Assembly (NCBI RefSeq): GCF_044324875.1
Contig: NZ_CP172185.1
From: Escherichia coli
GTDB lineage: Bacteria > Pseudomonadota > Gammaproteobacteria > Enterobacterales > Enterobacteriaceae
Strand: one strand, 5' to 3'
Length of the DNA: 64,000 nt
Shown: one piece after another, positions 1 through 18,826 of the stretch
How positions within the stretch are numbered: the first letter of the stretch is position 1
Layout of the letters: every line of letters begins with the position of its first letter
Program-made: the position numbers and the translations under genes
The notes under the pieces: generated by a model
What the model saw: the letters and a program-made list of their open reading frames with translations, nothing else
What the model was told of the DNA's origin: nothing
Database searches by the model: none

Positions 1-411
1 TGCCATTGAAGCGGAGCGTCCCGTGCCGGAACGTTACCTCACAGCTGATACTGAGGGTTTCCGGGTCCTCTGCGAGCGATTCTGGCTGTTCGGCAGCTGC
101 ATCGAGAGTCACAGGAAGTAGCTGGGGGCTCTCTGAAGAAGGTAATAGCAGCTTTCCCTCGCGCCATTGTTGTCGCCATTTGAACAACAGATTGGCGTTA
201 ATGCCATTTTCAAGAGCAAGTTTTGAGATGGATATCCCGGGTTCACAGGAGGCAGCAACGAGCTGCTGTTTAAATTCGGGAGGATAATTAGGGCAGCCTT
301 TTCGCCTGCCGGGAGTCACATTTTTCTGCATATCTGACACTTTGGTTCCCACTACTTATTTGGTGGACACCACTTTGTCTAATTCGTCAGATTCTGACCA
401 GACGGTTCAGG
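1..411 (-). mobile_element. Partial IS3-family element. Its orfA (HTH transposase, start at 331) runs off the left window edge; a putative terminal repeat beginning TGAAC lies near 411.
   Basis: Minus-strand translation from 331 gives MQKNVTPGRRKGCPNYPPEFKQQLVAASCEPGISISKLALENGINANLLFKWRQQWREGKL..., an IS3-type OrfA HTH pattern. Family call is from recalled motifs only. Confidence 0.5.
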
Positions 412-843
412 CTGTACGCTTACTGACCTTATCGGTCACCGCGCGGATGGTGGCTGTGGAAACGCTGAAGGCATATAAATCTTCAATCTCCCGACTGATA
501 TCCTGGTAGCTCATTCCCAGCGCAAACAGGCGAATGATCTTGCGTTCGATCTCATCAGACAACGTGGTCTGGTGCTTCTTCACCAGTTGGGGTTAAAAAG
601 TACCATTACGATCGCGCGGAGTCGCCAGTTCGAAGCTACCGGTCGGGGCTTTAATGGTCTTTTTGCCGGAGCCATTTTTACGATTGGCTTCCACATCCTG
701 AGCCAGATGGGATTCAAGCTCTGCAGACAGGGCAGCCTAAGTTAACTGCTTGATTAATGACGTTAAGATTCCATCTTTGCCCGTTAATGCCTAGCCGGAC
801 TGGAGTGCCTTAAGCGCTTTATCGAAATCGAAGGGTTGGGACA
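412..843 (-). pseudogene. IS256-family (mutator-type) transposase, N-terminal ~144 codons only, with three in-frame stop codons; truncated at ~412 by the IS3-family element.
   Basis: Minus-strand translation from ATG at 843: MSQPFDFDKALKALQSG*ALTGKDGILTSLIKQLT*AALSAELESHLAQDVEANRKNGSGKKTIKAPTGSFELATPRDRNGTF*PQLVKKHQTTLSDEIERKIIRLFALGMSYQDISREIEDLYAFSVSTATIRAVTDKVS; similarity is lost below ~412. Confidence 0.55.
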
Positions 844-919
844 TGTGTCATTCCTTTTTGATTGTATATTACTGGAATGACACAGAATTTCTAACACTCC
901 CTTTTTAGATGAAATATAG

Positions 920-1705
920 TTAATCTTCGGTATGAATGTGTTGCAGCCAGTTTTTTATTACTGTATTTACTTCCTTTGCATGAGTGATATTTAGAGCGTG
1001 ATTTGCGTCGGGAATAACTTCAAGCTTGGAGTGTGCAATCACTTTGTGCATTTTAATTGCTTTCTCTAATGGGATTCCCATATCACTGTCACCATGAATA
1101 ATCAGTGTGGGGGTTGTGATTGTGTTAATTTTTTCTGAAATATCGTCACGTTCCAGCATTGCATTCATGGCATTTCTGATATTTTCTGGCTTATGTCCCA
1201 TCCATACTTTTTTCCATTTTTCTGCTTCAGAGACATTATTTCCGAAAAAAATGGGTAATAATAAGGAGATTATATTTTCCTTTATGATTGGGTCTTGCCA
1301 TCCATTACATAACTCCATGTAACTGGACGCGATTTCTGGTGGATCTTGCTCTGCCTGAGTTGCCATAAGGATTAGCCCTGACAAACGTTCTGAATGTGAC
1401 AGAGCAAATCGTAATGATATATATCCGCCCATCGACATTCCCCCTAAAACGAACTTATCCATTTGTAGTGAGTCTGCAACGCTTAAAATATCATCAACGA
1501 TATCATAGAGTGAGAAAGCTTCTGTTTTTTCAGTGTTTTTATCAAAACCCCGAACATTAATACAAACAAACCTGTGTTTTTCTTTTAGTTCGTCAAGTTG
1601 ATATTTAAACATGTCACTATTCATGAAAAATCCATGAACGAGTATGACTGGGGGATTATTTTTGTTTGTTTCAGTGTATCCAGAGTCAGCAAATGAATAT
1701 TTCAT
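920..1705 (-). CDS. Alpha/beta-fold hydrolase (esterase/lipase-like), 261 aa.
   Basis: Intact ORF with HGFFMNSDMF (oxyanion-hole region), GGMSMGG (GxSxG nucleophile elbow) and a C-terminal HGDSD motif; AT-rich context. Confidence 0.75.
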   Translation of the reverse strand: MKYSFADSGYTETNKNNPPVILVHGFFMNSDMFKYQLDELKEKHRFVCINVRGFDKNTEKTEAFSLYDIVDDILSVADSLQMDKFVLGGMSMGGYISLRFALSHSERLSGLILMATQAEQDPPEIASSYMELCNGWQDPIIKENIISLLLPIFFGNNVSEAEKWKKVWMGHKPENIRNAMNAMLERDDISEKINTITTPTLIIHGDSDMGIPLEKAIKMHKVIAHSKLEVIPDANHALNITHAKEVNTVIKNWLQHIHTED

Positions 1706-2330
1706 GGAGCCTCCTTGATTTAGATGAATATATTGTGTGTTTTGTTAGTAATAGTGAAGCATTTCATTATATTGTCGAACTAGGATATATCTGTTGGATA
1801 AATATCCGTTTTAGAGTTTTTCAAATACTCGCCAGTTAAGACTCTTTTGGTGTGTTTACCAGTCTTGAGATATTGTTGTCAAGTATTTAAAAGGATATAA
1901 ACACACTGATTTAATGCTGATACTTATATATCAATAAATATTACCGGATGCCATGGTTAAAACTGGCTTATTTACTTCAGAAGAACAACGGCTAATGGAG
2001 CGATTGAAGTATTGTGGATATACCTATGCGAAGGTGTTTATGCTCGATTGGTTTTAGCAAACACGATAATATCCGAAAATTGCCTACATGGATAGATTTG
2101 TTAATTGCTATTAGCGGATGGGTAAGATTCATTGATGAGGCGGATTGATGGGCAAAGCCCCAGCCTCACGAACTGGTGGTCTTGAAAGCTTACATATTTC
2201 ATTTATTAAAGACGTAAACGTTTTAACTGTGTGGCATAAAAAGCAGAAGAGTGAAAATCCATAAATTACCGAATTATATCGGTGCCAGTCCGAATTTAGC
2301 CTTTGCACGGTTGCACGACTCATTGACTTC

Positions 2331-2603
2331 TCAGTTCTCACTGGACATGGCGAATTTTCTGTACGTTGATGAGGGATTTTCATATATCGTACAACAGGCA
2401 TTTCTTCCCGGTATTCCCTCAAGCGCAATACATCGGGGATTTTTCTGATTAGTGCCGATCATGCATCGGTGGAAAGGGGAGGTTTGTTCAGTAAGTCAGG
2501 TGGGGATAGTACCGCCAGCATCATCGGCTTCAGACCAGTAAAAAGAGACGCGGAAAAATATACAACAGGCACCACACGTCATGCATGGATTCAGATCGCT
2601 CAT
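2331..2603 (-). pseudogene. CxxCxxCC-domain (YkgJ/UPF0153-like zinc/iron-chelating) protein interrupted by one in-frame TGA after codon 35.
   Basis: Minus-strand translation [83 protein letters not shown]...; the C-x2-C-x2-CC signature is present. Confidence 0.45.
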
Positions 2604-2780
2604 TTTTAGTACCATTTTAAAGTTTGACTTTGTATTTTTGCAACGAATCGCTAAAGAGAGCAGAAAAAACTATTCTCCAAAACTTGGTTATAACTACTTG
2701 ATTTTATAGATAGAGGCATGCTGTTTACACAGCAGTAAAAAGCATGCCAAATTTGCTATTAACCTTTTGAATATAAAATA

Positions 2781-3644
2781 CTAATCGTCTATTTCGGAAA
2801 CCTTCTTATTCAGCAGACGAGAAGCGCGCCAGTAAACCAGCAACATCAGGCCCATTACGATAGTCAGCGTAATGCTGGTGGCTGCACCAAACGGCCAGTC
2901 ACGAATATTGAGGAACTGTACCTTGATGACGTTACCGATCAGCAGGTTTTTCGCACCGCCCATCAGGTCGGACACATAGAACAGGCCCATCGCTGGCAGC
3001 ATCACCAGCAGACATCCGGCAATAATTCCCGGCATCGTCAGTGGGATAATGATGCGGATAAAGGTCTGCAACTTGCTGGCACCGAGATCGCGCGCCGCCT
3101 CAAGCAACGGCTTATCCAGTTTTTCGATACTGGAGTACAGCGGCATCACCATAAACGGTAGCAGAATGTAAACCAGACCGATAATCACCGCACTGGGCGT
3201 GAACATGATGCGAATTGGTGTATCAATAACGCCCAGCCAGAGCAAAAACTCGTTGAGATAGCCTTTGGTGCTGAGGAAAATTTTCAGCCCGTAGATACGA
3301 ATCAATGAGTTGGTCCAGAACGGAACAATCAGCAGAAACAGCAGCAGCGGACGCACCTTGTGTGGCAGCTTCGCCAGAAACCAGGCAAAAGGATAGCCCA
3401 GCACCAGGCAGGCGAGGGTGGCGATCAGCGCCATATTCAGCGAGTGCAATAGCACTTCAAAATAGAGCGGATCGAGCAGACGCGTGTAGTTATCCAGCGT
3501 AAAGACCATTTTGACGAAACTGGCGTCGTCGCGGGTCAAAAAGCTGGTGCCAATGATCATCAGGTTGGGCAGAAAGACAAACAACACAAGCCAACCGACA
3601 ATAGTGACAATCACTACATTCTGGAACTTACTTGTGTTCTTCAT
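2781..3644 (-). CDS. potB: Spermidine/putrescine ABC transporter permease PotB; the extreme C-terminus (VSEIDD) may differ from K-12.
   Basis: 287-aa ORF matching recalled PotB sequence ([29 protein letters not shown]...); overlaps potA start. Confidence 0.9.
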
Positions 3645-4764
3645 CAGCCAGTACGACCTCCCAGCTTTCTACCCAATTAATGGCCATTTTTTGGTCGAGA
3701 GAGTGGTCAAAGTCAGGATCGTCTTCATTGAAGAATTCGCTGACCATCACCATCTTGCCATTTTCCAGTTCAACAACCGACTCCAGCGTCATGCCTTTGT
3801 AGTTACGCTCGCGAACGTAACCAATCAGCCCTTCAGCGTGGTTGTCGTCGTTAATCTCTTCAACACGTAAGTCTTCCGGGCGCAGCAGAACATGCAGTTT
3901 TTGCCCCGGTTCAACGGCGAAGTTAACGTAGATATTACATTCGCGGCCTTCAACGTTGGCGCGTACGCGCTGCTCGTCTAGACGTTCGATGACAGTGGCG
4001 TTAAACATATTGATTTCGCCAATAAACCCAGCAACAAACAGGTTTTTCGGCTCTTCATAGATTTCACGCGGCGTGCCGTCTTGCTCAATGCGACCATCGC
4101 GCATCACCACAATCCTGTCCGACATGGTGAGTGCTTCTTCCTGGTCGTGAGTCACGAAGACGAATGTAATGCCAAGCTTACGCTGTAACGCTTTCAGCTC
4201 GTTCTGCATTTGCTTGCGCAGTTTGTAATCCAGCGCTGAGAGCGACTCATCCAGCAACAACAGACGAGGCTTGTTAACCACTGCGCGGGCAATGGCGACG
4301 CGTTGCTGTTGACCACCAGAGAGCTGATGCGGTTTGCGTTGAGCGAAGGTTTCCAGCTGCACCATCCGCAGGGCTTCCATCACGCGGGGCGTAATTTCAG
4401 CAGCGGGGGTTTTTTGCATGCGTAACCCAAAGGCCACATTTTCGAACACGGTCATGTGGGGGAAAAGTGCGTAGCTTTGGAAAACAGTGTTCACATAGCG
4501 GTTTTCCGCCGGAACGTGGGTGATGTCCTCGTTATCCAGCATGATGCGTCCGGAATCAACAGTTTCCAGACCTGCAATCAGGCGAAGAACGGTTGTTTTA
4601 CCGCAGCCAGAAGGGCCAAGCAGCGTGAGGAACTCGCCATTGTTGATAGTCAGATCCAGCTGGGGAATGACCTCTTTACCATCAAAGCATTTGCGAATTC
4701 CCGCCAATTGCACCAGCGGTGAAAGCGAACTCGGTTGTTTATTCAATTTTTTACTCTGTCCCAT
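3628..4764 (-). CDS. potA: Spermidine/putrescine ABC transporter ATPase PotA.
   Basis: 378-aa ORF with Walker [13 protein letters not shown] signature LSGGQQQR and Walker B LLLLDE. Confidence 0.95.
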
Positions 4765-5013
4765 GTAAACGCAACGGATGGCTTACCGATGCGGGGTTTG
4801 TGGTTAACCACCTTGGTGACTCTTAATGAGGGCGGTAATTCTACGGCAAACCGCTTGAATCGCCAATCTTTGTTGTGAATTACTGGCTTAGCTTTATATT
4901 CATTAAGGTAATGCTGATAAATATTCCCGCTTGCAGGGGTAAAAGTGACCTGACGCAATATTTGTCTTTTCTTGCTTCTTAATAATGTTGTCACAAAAAG
5001 TGAGGGTGACTAC

Positions 5014-6240
5014 ATGGATAAACTACTTGAGCGATTTTTGAACTACGTGTCTCTGGATACCCAATCAAAGGCAGGGGTGAGACAGGTTCCCAGCACGGAA
5101 GGCCAATGGAAGTTATTGCATCTGCTGAAAGAGCAGCTCGAAGAGATGGGGCTTATCAATGTGACCTTAAGTGAGAAGGGCACTTTGATGGCGACGTTAC
5201 CGGCTAACGTCCCTGGCGATATCCCGGCGATTGGCTTTATTTCTCATGTGGATACCTCACCGGATTGCAGCGGCAAAAATGTGAATCCGCAAATTGTTGA
5301 AAACTATCGCGGTGGCGATATTGCGCTGGGTATCGGCGATGAAGTTTTATCACCGGTTATGTTCCCGGTGCTGCATCAGCTACTGAGTCAGACGCTGATT
5401 ACCACCGATGGTAAAACCTTGTTAGGAGCCGATGACAAAGCAGGTATTGCAGAAATCATGACCGCGCTGGCGGTATTGCAACAGAAAAACATTCCGCATG
5501 GTGATATTCGCGTCGCCTTTACCCCGGATGAAGAAGTGGGCAAAGGGGCGAAACATTTTGATGTTGACGCCTTCGATGCCCGCTGGGCTTACACCGTTGA
5601 TGGTGGTGGCGTAGGCGAACTGGAGTTTGAAAACTTCAACGCTGCGTCGGTCAATATCAAAATTGTAGGCAATAACGTTCACCCAGGCACAGCGAAAGGT
5701 GTAATGGTGAATGCGCTGTCGCTGGCGGCACGTATTCATGCGGAAGTTCCGGCGGATGAAAGCCCGGAAATGACAGAAGGCTATGAAGGTTTCTATCACC
5801 TGGCGAGCATGAAAGGCACCGTTGAACGGGCCGATATGCACTACATCATCCGTGATTTCGACCGTAAACAGTTTGAAGCGCGTAAACGTAAAATGATGGA
5901 GATCGCCAAAAAAGTGGGCAAAGGGTTACATCCTGATTGCTACATTGAATTGGTGATTGAAGACAGTTACTACAATATGCGCGAGAAAGTGGTTGAGCAT
6001 CCGCATATTCTCGATATCGCCCAGCAGGCGATGCGTGACTGCGATATTGAACCGGAACTGAAACCGATCCGCGGCGGTACCGACGGCGCGCAGTTGTCGT
6101 TTATGGGATTACCGTGCCCGAACCTGTTCACTGGCGGTTACAACTATCATGGTAAGCATGAGTTTGTGACTCTGGAAGGTATGGAAAAAGCGGTGCAGGT
6201 GATCGTCCGTATTGCCGAGTTAACGGCGCAACGGAAGTAA
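5014..6240 (+). CDS. pepT: Peptidase T (tripeptide aminopeptidase).
   Basis: Six-frame ORF 4972..6240; start moved to [17 protein letters not shown] to give the 408-aa K-12 length. Confidence 0.93.
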
Positions 6241-6249
6241 GCGAAAAGG

Positions 6250-6273
6250 GATGCGGCATGTGATGCCGCATCC
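6250..6273. terminator. Bidirectional hairpin terminator between convergent pepT and roxA.
   Basis: Near-perfect inverted repeat GGATGCGGCAT-gtg-ATGCCGCATCC. Confidence 0.6.
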
Positions 6274-6288
6274 GGCTTAAATCCAAAC

Positions 6289-7410
6289 TTACCCTTCGAA
6301 GAACCAATACCCGCTATTGACCAGCGCCGCGAGCATCGCGAGGAATGACGGATCTTCCAGCGCATCGCCAAAATTCTCCGCAGTCAGCGCAATGTTGCTG
6401 GCGAGTGCATCCAGTGCCGGACGGTGCGGGGAATCGATCTTCTCACCATTGGCATACACGTCGTCGCCAATGCGCAATACGCGCAGACCACCCAGACGCA
6501 CCAGCACTTCACCTTGTTTCAGCGCATCGTAGATTTCATCCGGCTGATAAGGCGGCTCTGGCGGCGCGATATCCAGTTCATGGCGTGACTGGGATATAAA
6601 CTCCCCAAACCATTGCTTAAAGTGTTCCGGCTGGTTGATCAATTCGAGCATCATCTCACGCAGTTTATCCATCTCTTGCGGCAGAACATCCGCAGGATGA
6701 GCGCGAGGTGAAACATCAGGATCGCTGTAGTAGTTGCCGCCCAGTTCACGTTGCAGCACATAATCGGCAAATCCGCTAATCAGTTCCCGCGTATTTGGTG
6801 CGCGAAAACCGACGGAATAGTTCATCGCATTTTCCAGCGCGTAGCCTTCATGGGGGAATCCTGGCGGAATATAAAGAATATCGCCTGGCTCCAGTTCTTC
6901 ATCAATGATGGCTTCGAACGGATCAACCTGTAACAGATCCGGGTGCGGGCAGTGCTGTTTCATTTGCAGCTTTTCGCCCACTCGCCAGCGACGACGTCCG
7001 GTACCCTGAATGATAAACACGTCGTACTGATCGAGATGCGGGCCGACGCCGCCGCCAGGTACAGAAAAAGAGATCATCAGATCATCAATACGCCAGTCCG
7101 GTAGTTCACGGAACGGTCGCATCAGCGCGGCGGTCGGCTCATGCCAGTGGTTCACTGCCTGCACTAACAATGACCAGTTAGTTTCACCGAGATGATCGTA
7201 GCTTTCGAACGGGCCGTGGCTGACCTGCCATTTGCCATCCTGGTGGCTGACCAGTCGACTGTCGACTTCGCTTTCCATCGCCAGACCCGCCAACTCGTCT
7301 GGAGAGATCGGGTCAATAAAATTATTAAAGCCGCGTTTTAACACCACCGGACGTTTCTGCCAGTGACGTTCAAGAAAATCGGGCCAGTTAAGAGTGAGTT
7401 GGTATTCCAT
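6289..7410 (-). CDS. roxA: Ribosomal protein L16 arginine hydroxylase (JmjC/cupin 2-oxoglutarate oxygenase) RoxA/YcfD.
   Basis: ORF 6289..7419; start taken at MEYQLTLNWPDFLERHW (373 aa). Confidence 0.9.
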   Translation of the reverse strand: MEYQLTLNWPDFLERHWQKRPVVLKRGFNNFIDPISPDELAGLAMESEVDSRLVSHQDGKWQVSHGPFESYDHLGETNWSLLVQAVNHWHEPTAALMRPFRELPDWRIDDLMISFSVPGGGVGPHLDQYDVFIIQGTGRRRWRVGEKLQMKQHCPHPDLLQVDPFEAIIDEELEPGDILYIPPGFPHEGYALENAMNYSVGFRAPNTRELISGFADYVLQRELGGNYYSDPDVSPRAHPADVLPQEMDKLREMMLELINQPEHFKQWFGEFISQSRHELDIAPPEPPYQPDEIYDALKQGEVLVRLGGLRVLRIGDDVYANGEKIDSPHRPALDALASNIALTAENFGDALEDPSFLAMLAALVNSGYWFFEG

Positions 7411-7611
7411 GTTAAGCATCCACAGGCTGGTATCTGCAACCGATTATAACGGATGCTTAACGTAATGCGTGAAGTATGGGCATACTTTATCAATTAGTGT
7501 TTTTTGCCGTTTCATAATGTTTCAGGTTGTGCATTATGTTTTTGATTATAAACAAATTTGTGATTTTTCTTGTTCCAGCTTGTTTCACGTTGTAGCCCTT
7601 TGTGCAACGAT

Positions 7612-7637
7612 CGGTGTAGTTAATGGTGTAGTTAATT
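7612..7637. repeat. attL core of the integrated element: CGGTGTAGTTAATGGTGTAGTTAATT, itself a tandem GGTGTAGTTAAT duplication.
   Basis: Identical 26-mer at 18721–18746; a further ~45 bp upstream of each copy is imperfectly similar. Confidence 0.65.
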
Positions 7638-8888
7638 GTGATGACCGGATTCAAAATTATGAGCAGAGCACTTAACAAGCTGAGCGATACACAGCTAAGG
7701 AAAATCAACGGCACACCCGCCCAAAAAACAGCCTTTCTTAATGACGGTGGAAACTTGAGCGTCAGGCATTCAACCAGCGGCCTTTTAACCTGGTATTTCA
7801 CTTACAGGGCCGGAACGGGAAGGGGGGCATCACCGGAACGCATTAAGCTGGGAAATTATCCTGATCTGAGCCTGAAATCAGCCAGGGAAAAAGCCGCCCA
7901 GTGTCGCGCATGGCTGGCTGAGGGGAAAAATCCACGTCATGAGATGAATTACACCGTACAGGAAGCGTTAAAGCCTGTAACGGTTGGCGATGCGCTCACC
8001 TACTGGCTTGAGTCGTACGCAAAGGAAAACCGTGTGGATTATGACCCACTGAAAAAGCGGCTAAATAATCACGTAATACAGCACATTGGCCCTATGCCGC
8101 TGGATAAATGCGAGCTACGGCACTGGCTGGCCTGTTTTGATCGGGTGGCAAAGCAAGCCCCTGTTTCCGCCGGGTTCCTGCTACAGACATGCAAACAGGC
8201 GCTTAAGTTCTGCCGGAAGCGGCGCTATGCAATCAGCAACGTTCTTGATGATATGAGTGTGGCTGACGTTGGGAAAAAACCGGATATAGGCGAACGTGTC
8301 TTAAGTACCAAAGAACTGGGCGAATTATTGCAGGCACTGGACAAAAAAATATTTTCCCCTTACTACGTCGCACTAATCCGCCTCCTGATTGTTTTCGGAT
8401 GCCGGACAGTAGAACTGAGGTTATCGGAGATCGGCGAGTGGGATTTTACCGAAATGCTCTGGACCGTTCCGAAGGAGCACAGCAAAACGAAGGTAGCCAT
8501 ATTCCGGCCCATACCGGAAGCGATACTGCCGTTCGTCACGCAGCTGATGGAGCAGAACAGGCACACGGGCTTATTGCTGGGGGAAGTGAAACAGGAAACC
8601 AGCGTGTCGCAGTACGGCAGATTAGTGCACAGGAGGCTTAAACACCCTCACTGGTCACTGCATGACATCCGGCGCACCTTTACAACGATGCTGAACGATT
8701 TAGGCGTGGATCCTCACGTCGTGGAGCAGCTTACAGGCCACCAGATGCCAGGAATGCAGCGAGTTTATAATCATTCCCGTTATCTGGATGCGAAACGCAA
8801 TGCGCTGGATATGTGGACGGAGCGGTTAGGGATACTGGCGGGAGCACATGAAAACGTAACCACGCTACCAGTAACCAGAAGAAAATAA
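7638..8888 (+). CDS. int: Tyrosine-type site-specific integrase (P4-like family).
   Basis: Starts immediately after attL; C-terminal catalytic region ...LHDIRRTFTTMLNDLGVDPHVVEQLTGHQMPGMQRVYNHSRYLDA... (R, H-x-x-R, Y). Start ambiguous: GTG 7638, ATG 7641 or ATG 7659. Confidence 0.85.
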   Translation: MMTGFKIMSRALNKLSDTQLRKINGTPAQKTAFLNDGGNLSVRHSTSGLLTWYFTYRAGTGRGASPERIKLGNYPDLSLKSAREKAAQCRAWLAEGKNPRHEMNYTVQEALKPVTVGDALTYWLESYAKENRVDYDPLKKRLNNHVIQHIGPMPLDKCELRHWLACFDRVAKQAPVSAGFLLQTCKQALKFCRKRRYAISNVLDDMSVADVGKKPDIGERVLSTKELGELLQALDKKIFSPYYVALIRLLIVFGCRTVELRLSEIGEWDFTEMLWTVPKEHSKTKVAIFRPIPEAILPFVTQLMEQNRHTGLLLGEVKQETSVSQYGRLVHRRLKHPHWSLHDIRRTFTTMLNDLGVDPHVVEQLTGHQMPGMQRVYNHSRYLDAKRNALDMWTERLGILAGAHENVTTLPVTRRK

Positions 8889-8936
8889 TTTTTTTCGTGT
8901 TTTTTCAGTATGCGCATACTGGATAAGTGCACAGAT

Positions 8937-8970
8937 ACAACGTGAAACAATAAGCAACAACGTGAAACAA
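8937..8970 (+). promoter_or_regulatory. Two direct CAACGTGAAACAA repeats, candidate integrase arm-type binding sites.
   Basis: The same motif occurs inverted beside attL (7583–7598, CTTGTTTCACGTTG) and beside attR (18681–18700, TGTTCCACGTTGTTTCAT). Confidence 0.4.
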
Positions 8971-9262
8971 CCACGAACAAGAGGTCAAAAAGTATACAGA
9001 TTTATAAGTTGCTGATTTTTAATGCTCAACTGGTTTTTTATACATTAGCGAATAACGCTTTAAATAGTGAGAAAAAAGTCATAAAACGAGATTTTATGCC
9101 TTTGCATAATACTGAATTAAAATGATTTTTATTAAAATCACCCCGTTTCTGTAAAATACCCGCCACCAACATTTGCCAACTCTGAATCACCCTGACACAA
9201 TCAGACACATCCCAACGCAATAGAACACGAAATAACTCTTTAAGAAACGAAAGGGGGCAATA

Positions 9263-9451
9263 GTGTTAAGCACTGATCGGTTTATACGTGAAAAAGAATG
9301 CGAAAAGCTAACAGGCCTTAGCCGCTCATGCCGCTACCGCCTGGAAAAGGCCGGACAATTCCCATCACGGCGTAAGCTGGGCGGTCGTTCCGTTGGCTGG
9401 TCTTTATCCGAAGTTCTGGCATGGAAGGAAAGCTGCGAGGCAGTTCACTAA
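9263..9451 (+). CDS. alpA: AlpA-family phage transcriptional regulator / excisionase-like HTH protein (62 aa, GTG start).
   Basis: MLSTDRFIREKECEKLTGLSRSCRYRLEKAGQFPSRRKLGGRSVGWSLSEVLAWKE matches the AlpA/CP4-57 regulator pattern; sits just downstream of int. Confidence 0.75.
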   Translation: MLSTDRFIREKECEKLTGLSRSCRYRLEKAGQFPSRRKLGGRSVGWSLSEVLAWKESCEAVH

Positions 9452-9777
9452 AAAGACTGGCGGCACACAGCCGCCACCCATCCACTAATACAGAGATTTA
9501 ACCATGAAGACTGGATATACGCCCGAACAGGGGCGGGGCTTCGTTCGGCCTGGTGAAACTGAAAAACAACAAAATCGCGGTTTTTCAGGCATAAAAAAAG
9601 CGGCCCCGATAAGGAGCCGCCTTTCTGAACAATTAACCTACAGCGCAAAAAATGAATCTGAGCAGTGGGATTATATCAACCGTGCAACGAAGCGCCACAA
9701 TTGCCGGATAACGGGCAAAGAAAAGGCCACCTGTCACGGTGGCCAATGTGATCAGTGTGGTGGCTTGCTGGTGGCTA

Positions 9778-9969
9778 TCAACCTTTGGGTTCTATACCGC
9801 GCCGCTTTAGTTCAGCGCGCCCCAACTCTTTAAGCCAGTTGGCTAGGCTTATGCCGTCGCTCTGCGCTTCTTTGTCGAATTGCTCTTTTAGCTCTGGAGA
9901 AATTCGCATTCTGAATTGTGGGGATTGCCCATCACCCTTAGGGCTTTTATCACGTTTGATTGTTGACAA
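9778..9969 (-). CDS. Small ribbon-helix-helix (Arc/CopG-like) DNA-binding protein, candidate repressor, divergent from the replication operon.
   Basis: 63 aa, ...RMRISPELKEQFDKEAQSDGISLANWLKEL...; followed on the minus strand by a stem plus T-run terminator (~9590–9628). Confidence 0.5.
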   Translation of the reverse strand: MSTIKRDKSPKGDGQSPQFRMRISPELKEQFDKEAQSDGISLANWLKELGRAELKRRGIEPKG

Positions 9970-10016
9970 GTGGTCACCTATTAAATTAGCCTTTCTATTG
10001 TTAGGTGGTCACCTTA
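9969..10016. promoter_or_regulatory. Divergent promoter/operator region with two direct GTGGTCACCT repeats.
   Basis: AGTGGTCACCT at 9970 and GGTGGTCACCT at 10005, between the RHH gene start and the first gene of the rightward operon. Confidence 0.35.
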
Positions 10017-10088
10017 ACACGGGGACACTTAAAAAAGCAAAGCCCGAAGGCGCTAGGAACACCAACGGGCTTCTAACCACAAACCGTT

Positions 10089-10301
10089 ATGAGAGGTAGT
10101 TTTATGGCTGTAAGACAGCATACCCCACGACTAGCGCACACACAAACCGCCTTTGTGTGGCGTTTTCTGGCACTGAGTGCCGGAGAATCTCAAATCATCC
10201 ACGTAACCGCCTGGACGGAACGCGAAGCGCGTAGCCGTTGCCCGTCCGGTTGTGTTGCTGTATTCGCCGCCCGTATTCGTCAGGGGGTGTACCATGATTA
10301 A
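10089..10301 (+). CDS. Small protein resembling host cell-division inhibitor Icd-like proteins of P4-type satellites (weak call).
   Basis: MAVRQHTPRLAHTQTAFVWRFLALSAGESQIIHVTAWTEREARSRCPSGCVAVFAARI...; first gene of a translationally coupled operon; alternative start at 10104. Confidence 0.4.
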   Translation: MRGSFMAVRQHTPRLAHTQTAFVWRFLALSAGESQIIHVTAWTEREARSRCPSGCVAVFAARIRQGVYHD

Positions 10302-10662
10302 CCTGTCACTTACCGATCTTAACCGCGTTCAGTTTCGTGAGAAATTTACCGGACAGCTACTCGTCAATGTGGAGAACGGGCGCATAGTGCGTAATTATCA
10401 CCTGCCGGATGGTGCAATTGCCGGAAGCGTTGAAGCATTGCTGGAACTGGCGGAACGTGCGCGACTGATTAAGCCGTCAACGAGCCATCACGATGATGAT
10501 CTGCATTTTACCGGATGTATGGTGAGTCACTACGAAAACGGCGTCGAGGTATCCTGCGAACGGCTGCGTGATGATTGCTGTTTCGGCACACTGCCGGAAT
10601 TTATCGAATTGCTGACCAGTTGCGGATATCAGGTTATTCAGGGGGTGCGCCATGTGCAATAA
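10294..10662 (+). CDS. Hypothetical protein (~122 aa), satellite early operon.
   Basis: ORF with start/stop overlap to both neighbours; no recognisable motif. Confidence 0.55.
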   Translation: MINLSLTDLNRVQFREKFTGQLLVNVENGRIVRNYHLPDGAIAGSVEALLELAERARLIKPSTSHHDDDLHFTGCMVSHYENGVEVSCERLRDDCCFGTLPEFIELLTSCGYQVIQGVRHVQ

Positions 10663-11107
10663 CATCCGTCCGGACGCAGCAGGCGAAGCCATCATAACGC
10701 TAATGCACGCGCTGATTGATATTTCATGCACGGCAGCAACCGCAGAAAAACACATTACCAGAGAGCCGGAATATACAGGGGCAATAATCCCGCATTCGCT
10801 GGCCTACGCACAGCTAACCGCTGATATGGCGCTGAATGAGGCTAAAGCCATCCTGATTGCTGATTGTGAAAATGGGGGGGGGGTTATGCGTGATGATCGT
10901 TTTAATTCCCTGAAACAGGAATTTTCCGGCGTTCCTGATAATGCGGCTGATGCGCTTTCGTCAATATCTGAAATTATGCGGGTGGCTTTTTTCTTTCTTT
11001 GCACTGATGAGCACAGGGATACAGGGCTAAATATTCTTGATATCGCCGCTAATTATGCTGATTTCGTAACGGAAACTGTTTTAAGAAAAACGACGGACGG
11101 GGATTAA
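10652..11107 (+). CDS. Hypothetical protein (151 aa), satellite early operon.
   Basis: Intact ORF overlapping the upstream stop; no recognisable motif. Confidence 0.55.
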   Translation: MCNNIRPDAAGEAIITLMHALIDISCTAATAEKHITREPEYTGAIIPHSLAYAQLTADMALNEAKAILIADCENGGGVMRDDRFNSLKQEFSGVPDNAADALSSISEIMRVAFFFLCTDEHRDTGLNILDIAANYADFVTETVLRKTTDGD

Positions 11108-11108
11108 T

Positions 11109-11342
11109 ATGCGTGATATTTACCACGAAACAATAGACCGCGCATTTCTTGCACTTTCTCACAGTGAAAATATGTTGGAAATATTGCGCATATGTCTTGA
11201 AACGCTTGGAGATAATGAACGTGATAAACAGAAATCAATGATTGTCACGGCATTAATAACGCTTCTTGAGCCTGTAATAAATGAGTTGCAGGAAATAGAG
11301 ACATTACACGACCAGTATAAAGCGCCCCACACCGGAGAATAA
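11109..11342 (+). CDS. Hypothetical protein (77 aa), satellite early operon.
   Basis: Starts 2 bp after the upstream stop. Confidence 0.5.
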   Translation: MRDIYHETIDRAFLALSHSENMLEILRICLETLGDNERDKQKSMIVTALITLLEPVINELQEIETLHDQYKAPHTGE

Positions 11343-11347
11343 AAAAC

Positions 11348-11635
11348 ATGAAAAATAAAAATTCTGGCGTTAATGCCAGCGGCCCCGCTCGTCCTGAAAT
11401 CCGTCCCGGCGATATTTTCCGTGATAACTACGGCGGCACGGTAATGATTAAGGGCGTGGAAGAACGGCGCGTAACCTACCGCCGTGATGGCTACGAATAT
11501 GACTGCGTTATGCCTGTTTATCAGTTCCGGCGTGATTTCACGCTGGTGGGCCATCGTAAAGCCGTTAATCAGAAACGTGCTGCAAGTTATATCCGCAAAA
11601 TCCGTGAAATGCTGGTCGCAGGGGGTAAGAAATGA
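11348..11635 (+). CDS. Hypothetical protein (95 aa), overlaps the replication gene start.
   Basis: Intact ORF; stop overlaps the start of the next gene (ATGA-type coupling). Confidence 0.55.
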   Translation: MKNKNSGVNASGPARPEIRPGDIFRDNYGGTVMIKGVEERRVTYRRDGYEYDCVMPVYQFRRDFTLVGHRKAVNQKRAASYIRKIREMLVAGGKK

Positions 11636-13038
11636 AACTTGCACCGAACGTAAAACTGTTACCGAAAGATAAACACACTGAGGCGGTTATTTTTGCGGGT
11701 GATAATGCTCACTCCTTTGCAGAACATTACATGATTGCACAGGCCAAAAAAGCAGGCGATCCCATCCCTCCGGTTTACCTGGGCCGTTATCAGTTAAGCG
11801 AACTGGACAACTTACAGATTGTTGATGAAGGACGATACAGGGCAAAGGTCATACGCGCCGGAAACCTGGACGATATGCAGATGCTGACCATTGCCACAAA
11901 ACTGGCGATCGCCGGAGTCCAGGAGGCGCGCCTACTTTCTGAAAATTTCGAACTGCTGGAGGACTGGAGCGACCAGCTACCACGACTACGGGAAACATGG
12001 GAGAGAGGGGAAAGCCTGGTCATGAATGGCGGAAAGCGAAAAATCACACTTCCCATCTCATGGGGTTCTGAGGGATTCGATGCGCAGCAAAGCTACGTCA
12101 TTAAGGGGCTTATTCCGGCTGAGTCATTATGCAGCACCTACGGGGCCAGCGGTTCTTATAAATCGTTCCTCGCCATTTCCTGGTCGTGCCATGTTGCCAC
12201 AGGTATGGCATGGGGAGGCCGCAGGGTAAGTAAGGGTGCGGTTATCTATATCGCTGGCGAAGGCAGCATGGGCGTAAAACGCCGCGTTAAGGCGTGGGAG
12301 ATAACCCACGACAAGGTGGTTACAGATTTGTGCATCATTAACGCGCCTGTTTTCCCTGCATCGCCTGACTATGTGGAGCAGGTTATCAGGACTGCCGGAC
12401 TTGTTAAGAGCAGAACGGGCGAAAATGTGCGGCTGATTGTGATCGACACGCTGGCCCGTTGCTTTGGTGGGAATGATGAAAATGATTCCCGTGATATGGG
12501 CGCATTTATCCAGGGGTGTGACGCGATAAAGCAGGCCACAGGGGCCACGGTGCTGGTGGTTCACCATTCCGGCAAGGATGAAACAAAGGGGGCGCGTGGT
12601 TCCAGTGCATTCCGTGCCGCGCTTGATGCAGAGTACCGAATCAGCCGCGAAAATTCAGACGTTACAGCACTGGTCGCAGCATGTACGAAGATGAAGGACG
12701 CAGAGGAGCCAAAAGAGAGCGCATACGACCTTAAAAGCGTGGAGGTGTTCACCGATACAGATGGCGAAGAAATTGTGTCCATGGTGGTGATTGACGTTCC
12801 CCGCGCCCCTGCTGAACTGGAGCGCATCGAGGAGGCAGGCAACAAGACGGAAAACCATACCGCGCTATGGGGGTGCATCCGTTCACGCACACAGAACGGC
12901 GACAAGTGCACGATCCCGCTGTTACGTGATGACATGAAACGGCTTGGGTATGACGTGAAAAATATGCGGCGATGGTTAGCCAAACTGGAAAAAGACGCCG
13001 TGATTTACATTGATGGTGATGATGTAGGACCACTGTAA
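11632..13038 (+). CDS. Replication initiator / RecA-fold P-loop ATPase (RepA/AAA_25-like primase-helicase family).
   Basis: 468 aa; P-loop-like YGASGSYKSF, Walker-B-like LIVIDTLARCFGG, VLVVHHSGKDETKG; followed directly by iterons. Confidence 0.75.
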   Translation: MKLAPNVKLLPKDKHTEAVIFAGDNAHSFAEHYMIAQAKKAGDPIPPVYLGRYQLSELDNLQIVDEGRYRAKVIRAGNLDDMQMLTIATKLAIAGVQEARLLSENFELLEDWSDQLPRLRETWERGESLVMNGGKRKITLPISWGSEGFDAQQSYVIKGLIPAESLCSTYGASGSYKSFLAISWSCHVATGMAWGGRRVSKGAVIYIAGEGSMGVKRRVKAWEITHDKVVTDLCIINAPVFPASPDYVEQVIRTAGLVKSRTGENVRLIVIDTLARCFGGNDENDSRDMGAFIQGCDAIKQATGATVLVVHHSGKDETKGARGSSAFRAALDAEYRISRENSDVTALVAACTKMKDAEEPKESAYDLKSVEVFTDTDGEEIVSMVVIDVPRAPAELERIEEAGNKTENHTALWGCIRSRTQNGDKCTIPLLRDDMKRLGYDVKNMRRWLAKLEKDAVIYIDGDDVGPL

Positions 13039-13240
13039 AAAGTGAGTAGTAAAAGTGAGTAATGGTGAGGTTTTTACAAAATATTAACACAATTACTCAC
13101 TTTCTCACCTGTATACATGCTCAAAAGTGAGCAGTGAAAAAACACTTATGAAACATGCACATATAAAACACAAAAATCTCAAGTGAGACGAAGTGAGACG
13201 CTTTAAAAAGTGAGTAGTAAAAGTGAGAGATGGTGAGCAA
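13039..13240. repeat. Iteron cluster, putative satellite replication origin.
   Basis: A ~30-bp unit AAAAGTGAGTAGTAAAAGTGAG(T/A)(A/G)ATGGTGAG occurs twice (13037–13070 and 13203–13237), with about ten AAGTGAG-type motifs including tandem AAGTGAGACGAAGTGAGACG and an inverted copy. Confidence 0.55.
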
Positions 13241-13608
13241 TGAATAAAAACCGAACAGCAGGACAAAATACCGAAGGTAAATTTATGAACACTGAAATTG
13301 AAACACTGAGCATATCAACTGCCCTTCCTGGCTGGTGGGCTAAGTTCAAAGACGACGACGGCACGGAATGGTATAGCCCAATTGCTGCATGGGCGCTTTG
13401 TGATATCCACCATTTCGGCACCGGAGATACTTACCGCGAAATCTTACCCGTGCTGACCAGTGAGCTGGGCATGAGTCCGCATAGTCCTGATGAGGGAATG
13501 TGCGAGTGCCTTTATCTGCCGGATAAGAAGTTTGTTCACTGTGGTGAATCGATGGTATTTGCCTGGTATCCGGTTAACGACAGCAGCAATAGCGGTACTC
13601 TGGAGTAA
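13240..13608 (+). CDS. Hypothetical protein (122 aa; alternative start MNTEIETL at 13285).
   Basis: ORF immediately downstream of the iterons. Confidence 0.45.
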   Translation: MNKNRTAGQNTEGKFMNTEIETLSISTALPGWWAKFKDDDGTEWYSPIAAWALCDIHHFGTGDTYREILPVLTSELGMSPHSPDEGMCECLYLPDKKFVHCGESMVFAWYPVNDSSNSGTLE

Positions 13609-13611
13609 ATC

Positions 13612-13854
13612 ATGAAGGTAAACCACAAAAAGACAGATCACCGCGCCATTGACCTTACAGAGCACTGGCTGAGGGTGGCGATAAAAATCATCGACCGCAA
13701 CACGGGGGAAGGATACGCGAAAGCACATCCCGAACTGATAAGTGCATTCATGACCACAGCGGCGGCAAACTTTGCCACGCTGACAGAGCGGGATATTGCC
13801 GAAGCAGAACAGGTAACAACCATCAACGTTAAAACCAGTGAGGTGGAATCATGA
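13612..13854 (+). CDS. Hypothetical protein (80 aa).
   Basis: ORF whose stop overlaps the ssb-like start. Confidence 0.45.
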   Translation: MKVNHKKTDHRAIDLTEHWLRVAIKIIDRNTGEGYAKAHPELISAFMTTAAANFATLTERDIAEAEQVTTINVKTSEVES

Positions 13855-14261
13855 CAGCACAGATAGCGGCTTACGGGCGGCTGGTGGACGACCCGCAGGT
13901 AAAACAGACCAGTAAGGGTACACCGATGACGCTGGCGCGTATGGCGGTATCTTTACCATGCGGCCAGGCACAGGACGGACAGGCGACGTTATGGTTATCG
14001 GTCATCGCATTTGGCAAACAGGCCGACTTTCTGGCTAAACATCAAAAAGGCGACGTTGCCAGCGTATCCGGCACGATGCAGGTCAGCCAGTGGACCGGAC
14101 AGAACGGGGAAACGCGGCAGGGTTATCAGGTTATTGCAGACAGCGTAATCAGTGCCCGTGCGGCACGTCCTGGCGGGAACAGACGCAAAACCACAGGCAC
14201 ACAGGGTAATCAGCCACCAGCGGGAGGCGATGACCCTTACGGTGATGATATTCCGTTCTGA
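13851..14261 (+). CDS. ssb: Single-stranded DNA-binding protein homologue (short OB-fold) with a conserved SSB C-terminal tip.
   Basis: WLSVIAFGKQADFLAKHQKGDVASVSGTMQVSQWTGQNGETRQGYQV parallels E. coli SSB [48 protein letters not shown]; Gly/Pro-rich linker; ends ...DPYGDDIPF (E. coli SSB ends DFDDDIPF). Confidence 0.8.
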   Translation: MTAQIAAYGRLVDDPQVKQTSKGTPMTLARMAVSLPCGQAQDGQATLWLSVIAFGKQADFLAKHQKGDVASVSGTMQVSQWTGQNGETRQGYQVIADSVISARAARPGGNRRKTTGTQGNQPPAGGDDPYGDDIPF

Positions 14262-14271
14262 GGGGGTGACG

Positions 14272-14544
14272 ATGGTACATGACCGCATAGCGGAGGAACT
14301 CGAGGCAAAAGGATTTTACCGGAGGGCGGCGGCGCGATGGGGTGAAGTTATGAGGCTGGTGAGCACTGACAAGGAGCGCGAACAGGTGGCAATGCGACGG
14401 CTGGAATGTTCCCTGAAGGCACAGAGGCCACCGGAGCCGCCGGATGATTTAGGCGCTCTGAAAAGGTCAGTTAATCGCACTGAAAAACAAATGGGGATAG
14501 CTGGTATTGGCAAAGCAATATGGCGCAACTACCCGCAGAAGTGA
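14272..14544 (+). CDS. PerC-family transcriptional regulator-like protein (~90 aa).
   Basis: MVHDRIAEELEAKGFYRRAAARWGEVMRL... resembles the PerC N-terminal pattern; six-frame ORF 14152..14544 trimmed to the ATG after the ssb stop. Confidence 0.5.
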   Translation: MVHDRIAEELEAKGFYRRAAARWGEVMRLVSTDKEREQVAMRRLECSLKAQRPPEPPDDLGALKRSVNRTEKQMGIAGIGKAIWRNYPQK

Positions 14545-14550
14545 GCACAC

Positions 14551-14620
14551 AGCCGGAGCAATCCGGCTTTTTTACGCCTAAAAAAAGCCCGATAAGGTCA
14601 AAGGGGGCTTATCGGGCTTT
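14551..14620 (+). terminator. Two tandem rho-independent terminators ending the satellite replication/regulation operon.
   Basis: AGCCGGAGCAATCCGGCTTTTTT, then AAAGCCCGATAAGG-tcaaagggg-CTTATCGGGCTTTT. Confidence 0.6.
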
Positions 14621-14784
14621 TGTAGAGGAGGTTTTTTATGGTGCACTGGCACACATGATCGGGATAATCATTTCATAATTTGCAACATAACTCAATATTG
14701 TTGCGCAAAATGCAATCATGATTATAATCAGGACTGGATGAACATCCAGTTATGATTTTTTAAGTCAAAGAGGAATTTCTGACT

Positions 14785-14991
14785 ATGGCAGAAGAGAAAA
14801 AAGGCGGGGTGACGGTCTACATAAGCCCCGACATCGTGGAGGCGCTCAAGGAACGCCACCAGCAGAATGTAAAAGCAGGCATTGCGGCAGGACTTGATCC
14901 GCTGGCGATGGTTGAGCCGTCAACAGGCTGGCAGGTGCGTACCTATTTACGTGCGGCGCTGGGTATCAATCAGGTTCACGGAGGTGAATAA
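14785..14991 (+). CDS. Hypothetical small protein (68 aa), first gene of the head module (possible scaffold or assembly factor).
   Basis: ORF translationally coupled to the capsid gene; preceded by an AT-rich promoter region with palindromes TGATTATAATCA and TTGCGCAA. Confidence 0.45.
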   Translation: MAEEKKGGVTVYISPDIVEALKERHQQNVKAGIAAGLDPLAMVEPSTGWQVRTYLRAALGINQVHGGE

Positions 14992-16046
14992 TGACAGGCA
15001 AAGCAAAGGCACTTACAACTAACCAGCTTTTCGCGTACCTGAATCGCGGGGATATTTCGGAATATAAATTTAGTCCGCTGTTTACCACGCTGTTTTTCCC
15101 GAACGTGGCGACCTTCAACACCCAAAACATCATGCTGGACACCCTGGACATTGAAGAGGTTACGATGTCAGCGTTCTGTTCTCCTATGGTGGGTAGTCAG
15201 GTCCAGCGCGATAAAGGGTACGAAACCAGCACGATTAAACCAGGCTACATGAAGCCAAAGCACGAAATCGATCCAACAAAGACCATCATGCGCATGGATG
15301 GAGAAGATCCGGCACAGCTTAACGATCCAACTTACCGCCGTATGCGCCTGATTACTGGCAACATGCGCCGCCAGATAAACGCCATTAAGGCGCGCGTGGA
15401 ATGGCTGGCGGTGAATGCGGTAACGACCGGAAAAAACATCATTGAGGGCGAAGGCATAGAACGCTATGAAATCGACTGGAAAATACCGGAAAACTGCATC
15501 ATACAGCAGGCCAGTGGTAAAAAATGGTCCCAGCAGGATAAAGACATGCACGACCCAATCTATGACATCGAGCTTTATGCTGATCAGGCAGGTTGCCCCG
15601 CCAACGTCATGATTATGGGCGGTGAGGTATGGCGCACATTACGCAGCTTTAAAAAATTCCGTGAACTGTACGATCTTTCCCGTGGATCAGAATCCGCCGC
15701 CGAGCTGGCCTGTAAAAACCTGGGCGAAGTGGTGAGCTTTAAAGGCTATCTTGGTGATCTGGCCCTTATCGTCTATTCCGGCAAATACACTGACAGCGAC
15801 GGGACCGAAAAATATTTCCTTGAGCCTGATTTGCTGGTCCTGGGTAACACCAACAATAAAGGGCTGGTGGCATATGGTGCGATTATGGATCAGGAAGCGG
15901 TAAGAACGGGCGCAACGCAAAACATGTACTACCCGAAAAACTGGATTGAGGACGGCGATCCGGCGATTGAGTACGTGCAGACGCACAGCGCACCGCAGCC
16001 TGTACCGGCAGATATTCGCAAATTTGTTACCGTCAAAATTGCTTAA
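14991..16046 (+). CDS. Phage lambda gpE-family major capsid protein homologue.
   Basis: 351 aa; collinear matches to recalled lambda gpE: FSPLFTTLFFP vs FDPLFLRLFF, PGYMKPKHEIDP vs PGYVKPKHEVNP, DPTYRRMR vs DPAYRRRR, VSFKGYLGDLALIVYSG vs VSYKGMYGDVAIVVYSG, YYPKNW vs RYPKNW. Confidence 0.85.
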   Translation: MTGKAKALTTNQLFAYLNRGDISEYKFSPLFTTLFFPNVATFNTQNIMLDTLDIEEVTMSAFCSPMVGSQVQRDKGYETSTIKPGYMKPKHEIDPTKTIMRMDGEDPAQLNDPTYRRMRLITGNMRRQINAIKARVEWLAVNAVTTGKNIIEGEGIERYEIDWKIPENCIIQQASGKKWSQQDKDMHDPIYDIELYADQAGCPANVMIMGGEVWRTLRSFKKFRELYDLSRGSESAAELACKNLGEVVSFKGYLGDLALIVYSGKYTDSDGTEKYFLEPDLLVLGNTNNKGLVAYGAIMDQEAVRTGATQNMYYPKNWIEDGDPAIEYVQTHSAPQPVPADIRKFVTVKIA

Positions 16047-16057
16047 CGGGGGATTCT

Positions 16058-16393
16058 ATGGACGCTCCATACATTGAGTTATTTTCAGGCAGCCAACAGG
16101 TATCCACGACGCTGGTACATTTTGCCGCTGATGCTGGCGTTATTCAGGAATTTACCCCGCTGATGCTGGCAGACAATGGCGAGTTTAAGCCGTGGGATGG
16201 TAAGGAATCTGGCAAGGCTGTTTATCTGACCTCGTACCCTGTGGACACGTCAAAGCAGAAATCAGCACAGTGTTACAAGACGGGGATATTCAATATTGCC
16301 GCCGTTAACTGGCCTGACAGCGTCGACACCGATGCGAAAAAATGCGCCGCCTTTGCGGGTTCCGGCGTATCCGTTCAGCCGCTGGCCCGATAA
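16058..16393 (+). CDS. Phage lambda gpD-like head decoration protein homologue.
   Basis: 111 aa; FTPLMLADNGEFKPWDG / KTGIFNIAAVNWPDSVDTDAKKCAAFAGSGVSV parallels lambda gpD MTPLMLDTSSRKLVAWDG / [34 protein letters not shown]. Confidence 0.7.
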   Translation: MDAPYIELFSGSQQVSTTLVHFAADAGVIQEFTPLMLADNGEFKPWDGKESGKAVYLTSYPVDTSKQKSAQCYKTGIFNIAAVNWPDSVDTDAKKCAAFAGSGVSVQPLAR

Positions 16394-16467
16394 GCAGGGG
16401 GAACGATGGCACAAACCAGGGCGATGACGGCGACATCTATCGCATACTGAAAACCATCTGAGACAAG

Positions 16468-16491
16468 GCCGGAGAAATCCGGCTTTTTTTG
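16468..16491 (+). terminator. Rho-independent terminator after the head genes, just upstream of cos.
   Basis: GGCCGGAGAAATCCGGCTTTTTTT; near-identical to the 14551 terminator. Confidence 0.55.
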
Positions 16492-16499
16492 CGGGTCCT

Positions 16500-16640
16500 T
16501 TCCGGCATGTGGACCCGTTACGGGGCGTCGACCTCGCACGTTTTCGCTATTTATGAAAATTTTCCGGGAAAAAGCATGTCAGTTCTTCTTGTTATTAACA
16601 TATTGTTTTTAAAGAAATAACTATCAAGAAAGAAACGACA
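16500..16640. other. Lambda-type cohesive-end site (cosQ/cosN/cosB-like); predicted 12-nt overhang region GGGCGTCGACCT at 16523–16534.
   Basis: GTTACGGGGCGTCGACCTCGCACGTTTTCGCTATTTATGAAAATTTTCCGG is near-identical to the lambda genome ends (GTTACG|GGGCGGCGACCTCGCGGGTTTTCGCTATTTATGAAAATTTTCCGG); a downstream GAAAGAAACGACA resembles a lambda cosB R site. Confidence 0.8.
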
Positions 16641-16710
16641 TCATAATGATGAAAAATCTGTTTTTTTTGGCATTTCATGTCGTAACTGATTTTTGATAAG
16701 GAATTGCTGA

Positions 16711-17295
16711 ATGAATGTTAATAAAAAGAGGCTTGCCGAAATTTTTAACGTGGACCCGCGGACGATTGAACGCTGGCAGTCACAGGGGCTTCCTTGCGTC
16801 TCCAAAGGCAGTAAGGGCATTGAATCTGTATTTGATACTGCCATGGCAATTCAGTGGTATGCGCGGAGGGAAACTGATATCGAAAACGAAAAGCTCCGCA
16901 AAGAACTGGACGATTTGCGTGCGGCAGCGGAGTCAGATTTACAACCCGGCACCATTGACTATGAACGCTATCGGCTCACAAAAGCGCAGGCAGATGCGCA
17001 GGAACTTAAAAACGAGCGCGATCGCGGTGACGTGATTGATACAGAGTTTTGCATGTACGCGCTTTCAAAACTGGCGAGTCAGATTTCATCAATCATGGAC
17101 AGCCTCCCGCTTACTATGCAAAGGAGCTTCCCACAGATGACCCCCGCCATGCTGGATGGCCTGAAAAAAGAAGTTGTCAGAGCCTGTAACGCATGCACAA
17201 AACTTGATGAAAACATCCCGCGAATGCTGTCCGATTATCTGATGGAAACTACCGGAAATGTGCCTGATAAGTTTCAGCCGGATAAAGACAAGTAA
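16711..17295 (+). CDS. Terminase small subunit, lambda Nu1 family (TerS/Rpp-like).
   Basis: [29 protein letters not shown]...[44 protein letters not shown] tracks lambda Nu1 MEVNKKQLADIFGASIRTIQNWQEQGMPV...[44 protein letters not shown]. Confidence 0.85.
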
Positions 17296-17536
17296 CGTAG
17301 TGCACAATGACCGAAGCCAGTTTACTGACTGGCTTTCAGCGTTGCGCTGGTGGGCGTTATGCGTCAGTGATAAACGTCTCCAATATTACTGATATTCGAC
17401 ATCCCCACCTCTCCACACCAGCTCGAATATCATTTTTCTCATTAAAAACAGGACATTAAAAACTGGTCAGATGTCCCATAAAAAGCCAAATGGGACAGGT
17501 CAAAAGCTTTTTTTGCAGTAATTTTCAATAGGTTAC

Positions 17537-17935
17537 TTGATGTGGTGGTGTCCCATGAAAATTCAAAAATCAGCCGTTTTCCGCGATGCTCCCGCCCCGT
17601 GGCAGGGCACCCCACAAGGAGGACCCGCCATCACTATGGAGGACATGACCATGACCGAGACCGAAGCGCTCGGGATAATCCGCAGTATTACCGGAATCAG
17701 CCAGCAGGCTGGCGAACAGGAGGCCACGCAGCCGGACAGCGTGATCGCCGAAAATTACGTGCGTGTTGTTGCTGATGTAATGCGCCGTGATGGTATTGAG
17801 CTTAACGGCGTGGATATGCGCGACATACGAATCAGAGTACTAGAGTTGCTGGCATACCGTCGACGCGTGGCGATGTATCAGGAGAGCGCGAAAAACACTT
17901 ATCAGTGGAAGAAGCCGGAGCGGTTACGGCGGTAA
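17537..17935 (+). CDS. Hypothetical protein (likely ~100 aa from an internal ATG near 17636, which has an RBS).
   Basis: ORF downstream of terS; no recognisable motif; ends 1 bp before the palindrome array. Confidence 0.45.
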   Translation: MMWWCPMKIQKSAVFRDAPAPWQGTPQGGPAITMEDMTMTETEALGIIRSITGISQQAGEQEATQPDSVIAENYVRVVADVMRRDGIELNGVDMRDIRIRVLELLAYRRRVAMYQESAKNTYQWKKPERLRR

Positions 17936-18560: not shown

Positions 18561-18720
18561 ACAGGTAAAGCCCACCAGCCTGATTGACATTTAACCGGAA
18601 AAAAAGCCAGGTAGCCCCGTTATGTGGATCCCCATATCGACAGCAACGCCCCCTTAAAATTACCCGCCTTTATATTTCTTGTGCCTATTTGTTCCACGTT
18701 GTTTCATACAGTGCGCCGAA

Positions 18721-18746
18721 CGGTGTAGTTAATGGTGTAGTTAATT
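18721..18746. repeat. attR core, direct repeat of attL.
   Basis: Identical 26-mer to 7612–7637. Confidence 0.65.
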
Positions 18747-18826
18747 TGCGATTTTTGGCACTTTTGTTTGTGTATATTTTTAATTAAATCAATACATTAA
18801 CTAATATCGGTGATAAAAGGGCATAT

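Follow-up and report, generated by a model that had tools for sequence, protein, structure and literature searches.

A ykgJ-like pseudogene with two in-frame TGA codons in foreign DNA beside potB in Escherichia coli

The window analysed here, a 64,000-nucleotide stretch of an E. coli genome (contig NZ_CP172185.1), contains near its start a ykgJ-like pseudogene on the minus strand (2274..2603), whose full extent of 109 codons and a TAA stop (2274-2276) was set by start-to-stop homology with chromosomal ykgJ. Translation of window 2290-2630 places the start codon at an ATG at 2603 on the minus strand, in agreement with the starts of its homologues. A sequence-only reading had ended the gene at 2331, after ~90 codons, and had described a single in-frame TGA. 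The TGA at codon 36 (2496..2498) is indeed present but is not the only one: 2331-2333 is itself a second in-frame TGA (codon 91), past which the frame continues for 18 more homologous codons, ending in GLAPI*, so that the true 3' end lies at 2274. The N-terminal CxxCxxCC motif (C7, C10, C13 and C14; 2562..2585) is intact, and its four cysteines are invariant in 42 homologues.

The proposal that this is a CxxCxxCC-domain gene is borne out by these four cysteines and by the Pfam family PF03692, against which the conceptual translation scores 30.1 bits once both stops are replaced (gathering threshold 23); an intact relative scores 46.6 bits with the same family. Chromosomal YkgJ aligns to the window with 82% identity over 109 residues (tblastn, E = 7e-60), far above chance, and the closest intact protein among 5.8 billion protein clusters is likewise 82% identical. 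No YkgJ model was found in NCBIfam or PHROGs and no close full-length copy in phage records, and the matches in a plasmid collection are ordinary ykgJ copies on large records. Several relatives in the databases are themselves frameshifted or truncated. The window copy belongs to PF03692 by descent only, that is, as a pseudogene.

Chromosomal ykgJ (b0288; YkgJ family cysteine cluster protein, PF03692 CxxCxxCC/UPF0153) likewise has 109 codons, with the same start and stop positions and the same intact N-terminal motif, and resembles the window copy at ~82% in protein and 86.4% in DNA, the latter across exactly 330 nt from ATG to stop codon with flanks that have no homology. It sits between yagU and ecpE, whereas the window copy lies beside potB in foreign DNA with unrelated flanks, has two in-frame TGAs and lacks C81, R77 and R101. 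The window gene is therefore a paralogous, prophage-borne pseudogene and not an orthologue of chromosomal ykgJ. The only phenotype reported for YkgJ is one of filamentation and biofilm formation (PMC8743551). A distant point of comparison is the flagellin lysine methyltransferase FliB, which has an N-terminal Cys-rich motif of the same general type that coordinates a [4Fe-4S] cluster (PMC8598068), but which is much larger, has the motif CX4CX3CC and has a known enzymatic role. An intact YkgJ-type protein is a small Cys-cluster protein and, by this analogy, probably coordinates a metal ion such as Zn or an Fe-S cluster.

The host chromosome is that of E. coli, as the segment potB-potA-pepT-roxA (2781-6300) matches 5,422 of 5,426 complete genomes with up to 99.5% identity. 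In alignment with K-12, potB (2781..3644, minus strand) is collinear up to ...AAGAAGGT (2800) and takes its last codons from foreign DNA: the last four potB codons are swapped for six others, giving a C-terminus of VSEIDD* in the window versus VELE* in K-12. The alignment breaks at 2799/2800, and the window from its start to 2799 is therefore foreign DNA, inside which the pseudogene starts (2603) 196 bp from the junction. This DNA separates potB from potC, which follows potB in K-12.

In other E. coli, strains KFu019 and GE3 among them, this side of potB is taken up by the end of a lambdoid prophage, in the order tail-tip and tail-fibre genes, YkgJ-family gene and potB. Their copies (KFu019 L6L55_RS10200; GE3 WP_001367470.1) have the position and orientation of the window copy, phage DNA again supplies the potB 3' end, and the spacer between potB and ykgJ is conserved together with its hairpin. 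The pseudogene open reading frame is 86.7% identical in DNA to the KFu019 copy, rising to 89% for a longer blastn match that includes the intergenic spacer. Of the 5,426 complete genomes, ~85 contain a locus that covers 80% or more of window 2274-2780, and in the rows that were checked it adjoins potB. The KFu019 and GE3 copies differ from the window copy in that their frames are open through both TGA positions, whereas that of the window copy is disrupted, with DNA identity to them of at most 89%; the GE3 copy is full length, and the KFu019 copy is annotated as partial, its C-terminus being cut by a junction. The neighbouring phage tail genes of these strains are replaced in the window by a hydrolase gene and IS debris, and no phage structural genes are kept near the pseudogene. 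Apart from the ykgJ-like sequence, there remain 568 bp of DNA without a match, an alpha/beta-hydrolase gene that is intact and debris of IS66 and IS256. The gene thus has the placement of prophage-end cargo (a moron), in foreign DNA at a junction and at the tail-fibre end of related prophages, and is present here as a remnant.

Between the stop of potB and the start of the pseudogene lies a spacer (2604..2780, minus strand) with a weak promoter-like site (2643..2614) and the hairpin (2715-2748). Its sequence is conserved at the prophage ends that adjoin potB in KFu019 and GE3; it has no homology to the chromosomal ykgJ-ecpE spacer. The hairpin has a 14-bp stem with one mismatch and lies 33 nt past the potB stop. 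Across three divergent prophage ends both arms are conserved and the loop is variable, and the hairpin was not flagged by a simple terminator scan. It may be a terminator of potB supplied by the phage, or else an att-proximal element.

Downstream of the pseudogene lies the intact alpha/beta-hydrolase (esterase/lipase-like) gene (920..1705, minus strand; Pfam Abhydrolase_1, E = 2.9e-29; PHROG esterase/lipase), which in other E. coli is found at prophage ends after tail-fibre genes. Fragments of an IS66 tnpA and of an IS256-family (Transposase_mut) element lie in window 1-900. The 568 bp between hydrolase and pseudogene (1706-2273) have no blastn match in the 5,426 complete E. coli genomes. A mobile element was considered for this interval and rejected, as there are no convincing terminal repeats and no match in these genomes.

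At prophage ends integrated at prfC, strains 377323_2f and Sx181-0-1 have ykgJ-like remnants annotated as 'ferredoxin', upstream of the hydrolase gene (88-92% identical) and in the same orientation. The layout in Sx181-0-1 was taken from its annotation, in which the remnant is a 123-nt 'ferredoxin' ORF; for 377323_2f the sequence of the copy was read. This copy is non-functional. Six of its derived changes, C81Y and R101K among them, are found in the window copy too, but its lesions otherwise differ (a frameshift, C10R, C97Y and others), and it is the more decayed of the two. Where the window copy has its two TGAs it reads AGG and AGA, both sense codons, and its DNA identity to the window copy is only 73.6%. 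Decay is common among ykgJ-like sequences that lie beside the same hydrolase at other prophage ends. In FHI_NMBU_03 the hydrolase gene is present without an annotated ykgJ-like remnant. Many Stx1 and Stx2 phages contain a short ykgJ-like fragment alone (residues 5-38, ~70% identity), unannotated in most records, an example being AP000400.1 (VT1-Sakai) 8692-8793. These fragments are consistent with the published attB-in-prophage sequence derived from ykgJ/ecpE (PMC8112680).

The lesions of the window copy were identified in a codon-by-codon comparison with three DNA relatives, with residue conservation taken from 42 homologous proteins. At codon 36 the relatives have AGA (KFu019), AGG (chromosomal ykgJ and the 377323_2f copy) or AGT (GE3), and the TGA is one A>T step away from AGA (Arg). 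As had been expected from the sequence alone, homologues have a sense codon here; among the 42 proteins the residues include Ala, Arg, Gln, His, Glu, Ser and Asp. The sequence 3' of this TGA is still homologous to the family, so it is not a natural stop followed by an unrelated downstream part. At codon 91 the relatives have GGA or GGC, the TGA is one G>T step away from GGA, and Gly is found in 37 of the 42 homologues. Three missense changes accompany the stops, each at a position invariant in 42 of 42 homologues: codon 81 (2361..2363) is TAC (Tyr) in place of Cys (TGC>TAC), codon 77 (2373..2375) is CCC (Pro) in place of Arg and codon 101 (2301..2303) is AAG (Lys) in place of Arg, the changes at codons 81 and 101 being found also in the 377323_2f copy. 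The window copy therefore has neither the uninterrupted frame of ~109 codons expected of a functional gene, with TGA at codons 36 and 91, nor the full set of conserved downstream residues (C58, C71, C81, C97, R77 and R101), from which C81, R77 and R101 have been changed; the other conserved cysteines of the family, C58, C71 and C97, are retained.

Selection has also been relaxed in the window lineage. Changes were assigned to lineages by three-taxon parsimony (window, KFu019 and chromosomal ykgJ), giving 20 nonsynonymous and 10 synonymous changes in the window lineage and 2 and 21, respectively, in the KFu019 and chromosomal lineages together (Fisher p = 1.9e-5). Between KFu019 and chromosomal ykgJ omega is 0.025, and a value this low between two intact copies indicates that the ykgJ family is normally under tight constraint. 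The intact potB-adjacent copies are under strong purifying selection (omega 0.025-0.06), a pattern that the window copy does not follow. An omega of ~0.03 in phage-borne ykgJ copies suggests that YkgJ is useful to phage or host. The lineage-wide N:S ratio of 2.0 in the window copy is below a neutral expectation of ~3.5, and part of the divergence therefore arose under constraint. A somewhat unexpected feature for a long-dead gene is that there are no indels and that all 109 codons are otherwise open. Together with the second TGA and the loss of three invariant residues, the 20:10 nonsynonymous:synonymous excess supports and extends the initial interpretation of the locus as a nonsense pseudogene.

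Two explanations of the stop codons would leave a protein intact. One, raised in the sequence-only reading, is that the gene is really intact and the TGA an error of sequencing or assembly, and it is true that a single base change at codon 36 (T for A) would give Arg back. Such a repair would nonetheless leave the codon 91 TGA in place together with C81Y, R77P and R101K at invariant positions, and one miscalled base cannot yield the 20:10 excess. The exact 35-residue N-terminal product of the pseudogene is moreover on record in a collection of 15 billion proteins, which has no record of its 39- and 43-residue ORF products; the 35-residue product is encoded on an ENA metagenome contig (ERZ27280448:k141_258560) that matches window 424-3060 at 99.66%, including the 1706-2273 interval, and contains both TGAs. 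The occurrence of the same TGAs on an independently assembled contig makes a private sequencing error very unlikely, and we regard this explanation as highly improbable overall. Within the gene the contig is otherwise identical, with one C fewer (~581) in the CCCC run at window 2476-2479, just after the first TGA; this 1-nt deletion adds a frameshift and reflects either continued decay or an error in assembling the homopolymer. The contig diverges from the window at 424, and its positions 2636-4641 hold more of an IS256-family transposase gene and then a DinI-like gene.

The other explanation is recoding of the TGA, whether as selenocysteine or through readthrough that is programmed or leaky, to give a full-length protein. 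The selenocysteine machinery is present in E. coli, and the C that follows the first TGA makes for a comparatively leaky stop context. However, a selenoprotein would have UGA opposite Cys or Sec and a SECIS hairpin directly 3' of the UGA, and the locus has neither. The codon 36 column is variable among the 42 homologues (Ala 10, Arg 7, Gln 6, His 4, others) and is Cys in none of them, and the codon 91 column is Gly. Folding of the 70 nt after either TGA is no better than that of shuffled sequence (z = -0.69 and -1.18), the GGTC motif found in the loop of the fdhF-type SECIS of E. coli is missing from both stretches, and an Rfam search at a permissive E-value returned nothing relevant; a match to STnc560 at 2001-2141 (17 bits versus a gathering score of 55) was treated as chance. 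We agree, after these folding, motif, Rfam and column checks, with the earlier statement that there is no SECIS-like evidence, and nothing else supports recoding. Readthrough would in any case have two stops to bypass, for a product still without the invariant C81, R77 and R101, and we consider a recoded protein scarcely credible.

A different proposal accepts that the coding function is dead and holds that the DNA is kept because it serves the hydrolase gene as promoter or 5' leader, or serves other phages as a secondary attachment site. Its appeal lies in the recurrence of a ykgJ-like remnant and the hydrolase gene, in the same orientation, at prophage ends at different chromosomal sites, a pairing that a role as hydrolase leader would, if true, explain; linkage of this kind can also be accounted for by common descent alone. 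A promoter-like site does lie just upstream of the pseudogene, but the promoter scan found 1 site versus a mean of 3.0 in shuffled controls, that is, fewer, and ~430 bp of unrelated DNA, part of the 1706-2273 interval and missing from the otherwise homologous arrangement in 377323_2f, separate the pseudogene from the hydrolase gene. With regard to attachment, attB sequences derived from ykgJ/ecpE have been reported inside prophages, with attB function mapping to the ykgJ-ecpE spacer (Nakamura et al., 2021, PMC8112680). In the window, homology to the chromosome ends exactly at the ykgJ start codon, and an origin from the chromosomal ykgJ-ecpE region, as in attB-in-prophage_2, was rejected, since homology detected by sensitive blastn is confined to the open reading frame and the spacer 2604-2780 is unmatched. 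Retention as leader or attachment site is in our view very unlikely. It is also very unlikely that the dead DNA is kept as hydrolase promoter or 5' leader or, as an alternative to this, that a 35-residue CxxCxxCC peptide is still made and active.

The locus is almost certainly a non-functional relic of a phage-borne ykgJ paralogue in a degraded lambdoid prophage end at the 3' end of potB. A lambdoid prophage end carrying the paralogue would have integrated into the potB 3' end and subsequently degraded to the present remnant. The codon 36 TGA is a genuine point mutation from AGA (Arg), one among several lesions, alongside a change from GGA (Gly) to TGA at codon 91 and the substitutions C81Y, R77P and R101K at invariant residues. 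Translation that begins at the ATG at 2603 would end with residue 35, so that no full-length YkgJ-like protein would be produced. C81Y and R101K are common to the separately decaying copy of 377323_2f, and inactivation therefore probably preceded both nonsense mutations; we infer that constraint was lost, and that probably C81Y also arose, earlier than either TGA. The pseudogene presumably has no residual role.

This is an ordinary nonsense-plus-missense pseudogene of an already known family, and its importance beyond annotation is small. The proper annotation is a single pseudogene with two internal stops (minus strand, 2274-2603), in place of two or three separate small ORFs or a fragment labelled 'ferredoxin'. 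The copy marks where a degraded prophage ends on the potB side and represents a natural loss-of-function allele of phage-borne ykgJ.

Elsewhere in the window, an island of ~11 kb (7420-18826) lies between roxA and phoQ, genes that adjoin each other in K-12. Among its products are an integrase (7638-8888), an AAA_25 protein (11632-13038), the phage major capsid protein E (14991-16046) and a small terminase, Nu1 (16711-17295). The island resembles a phage satellite or a PICI-like element.
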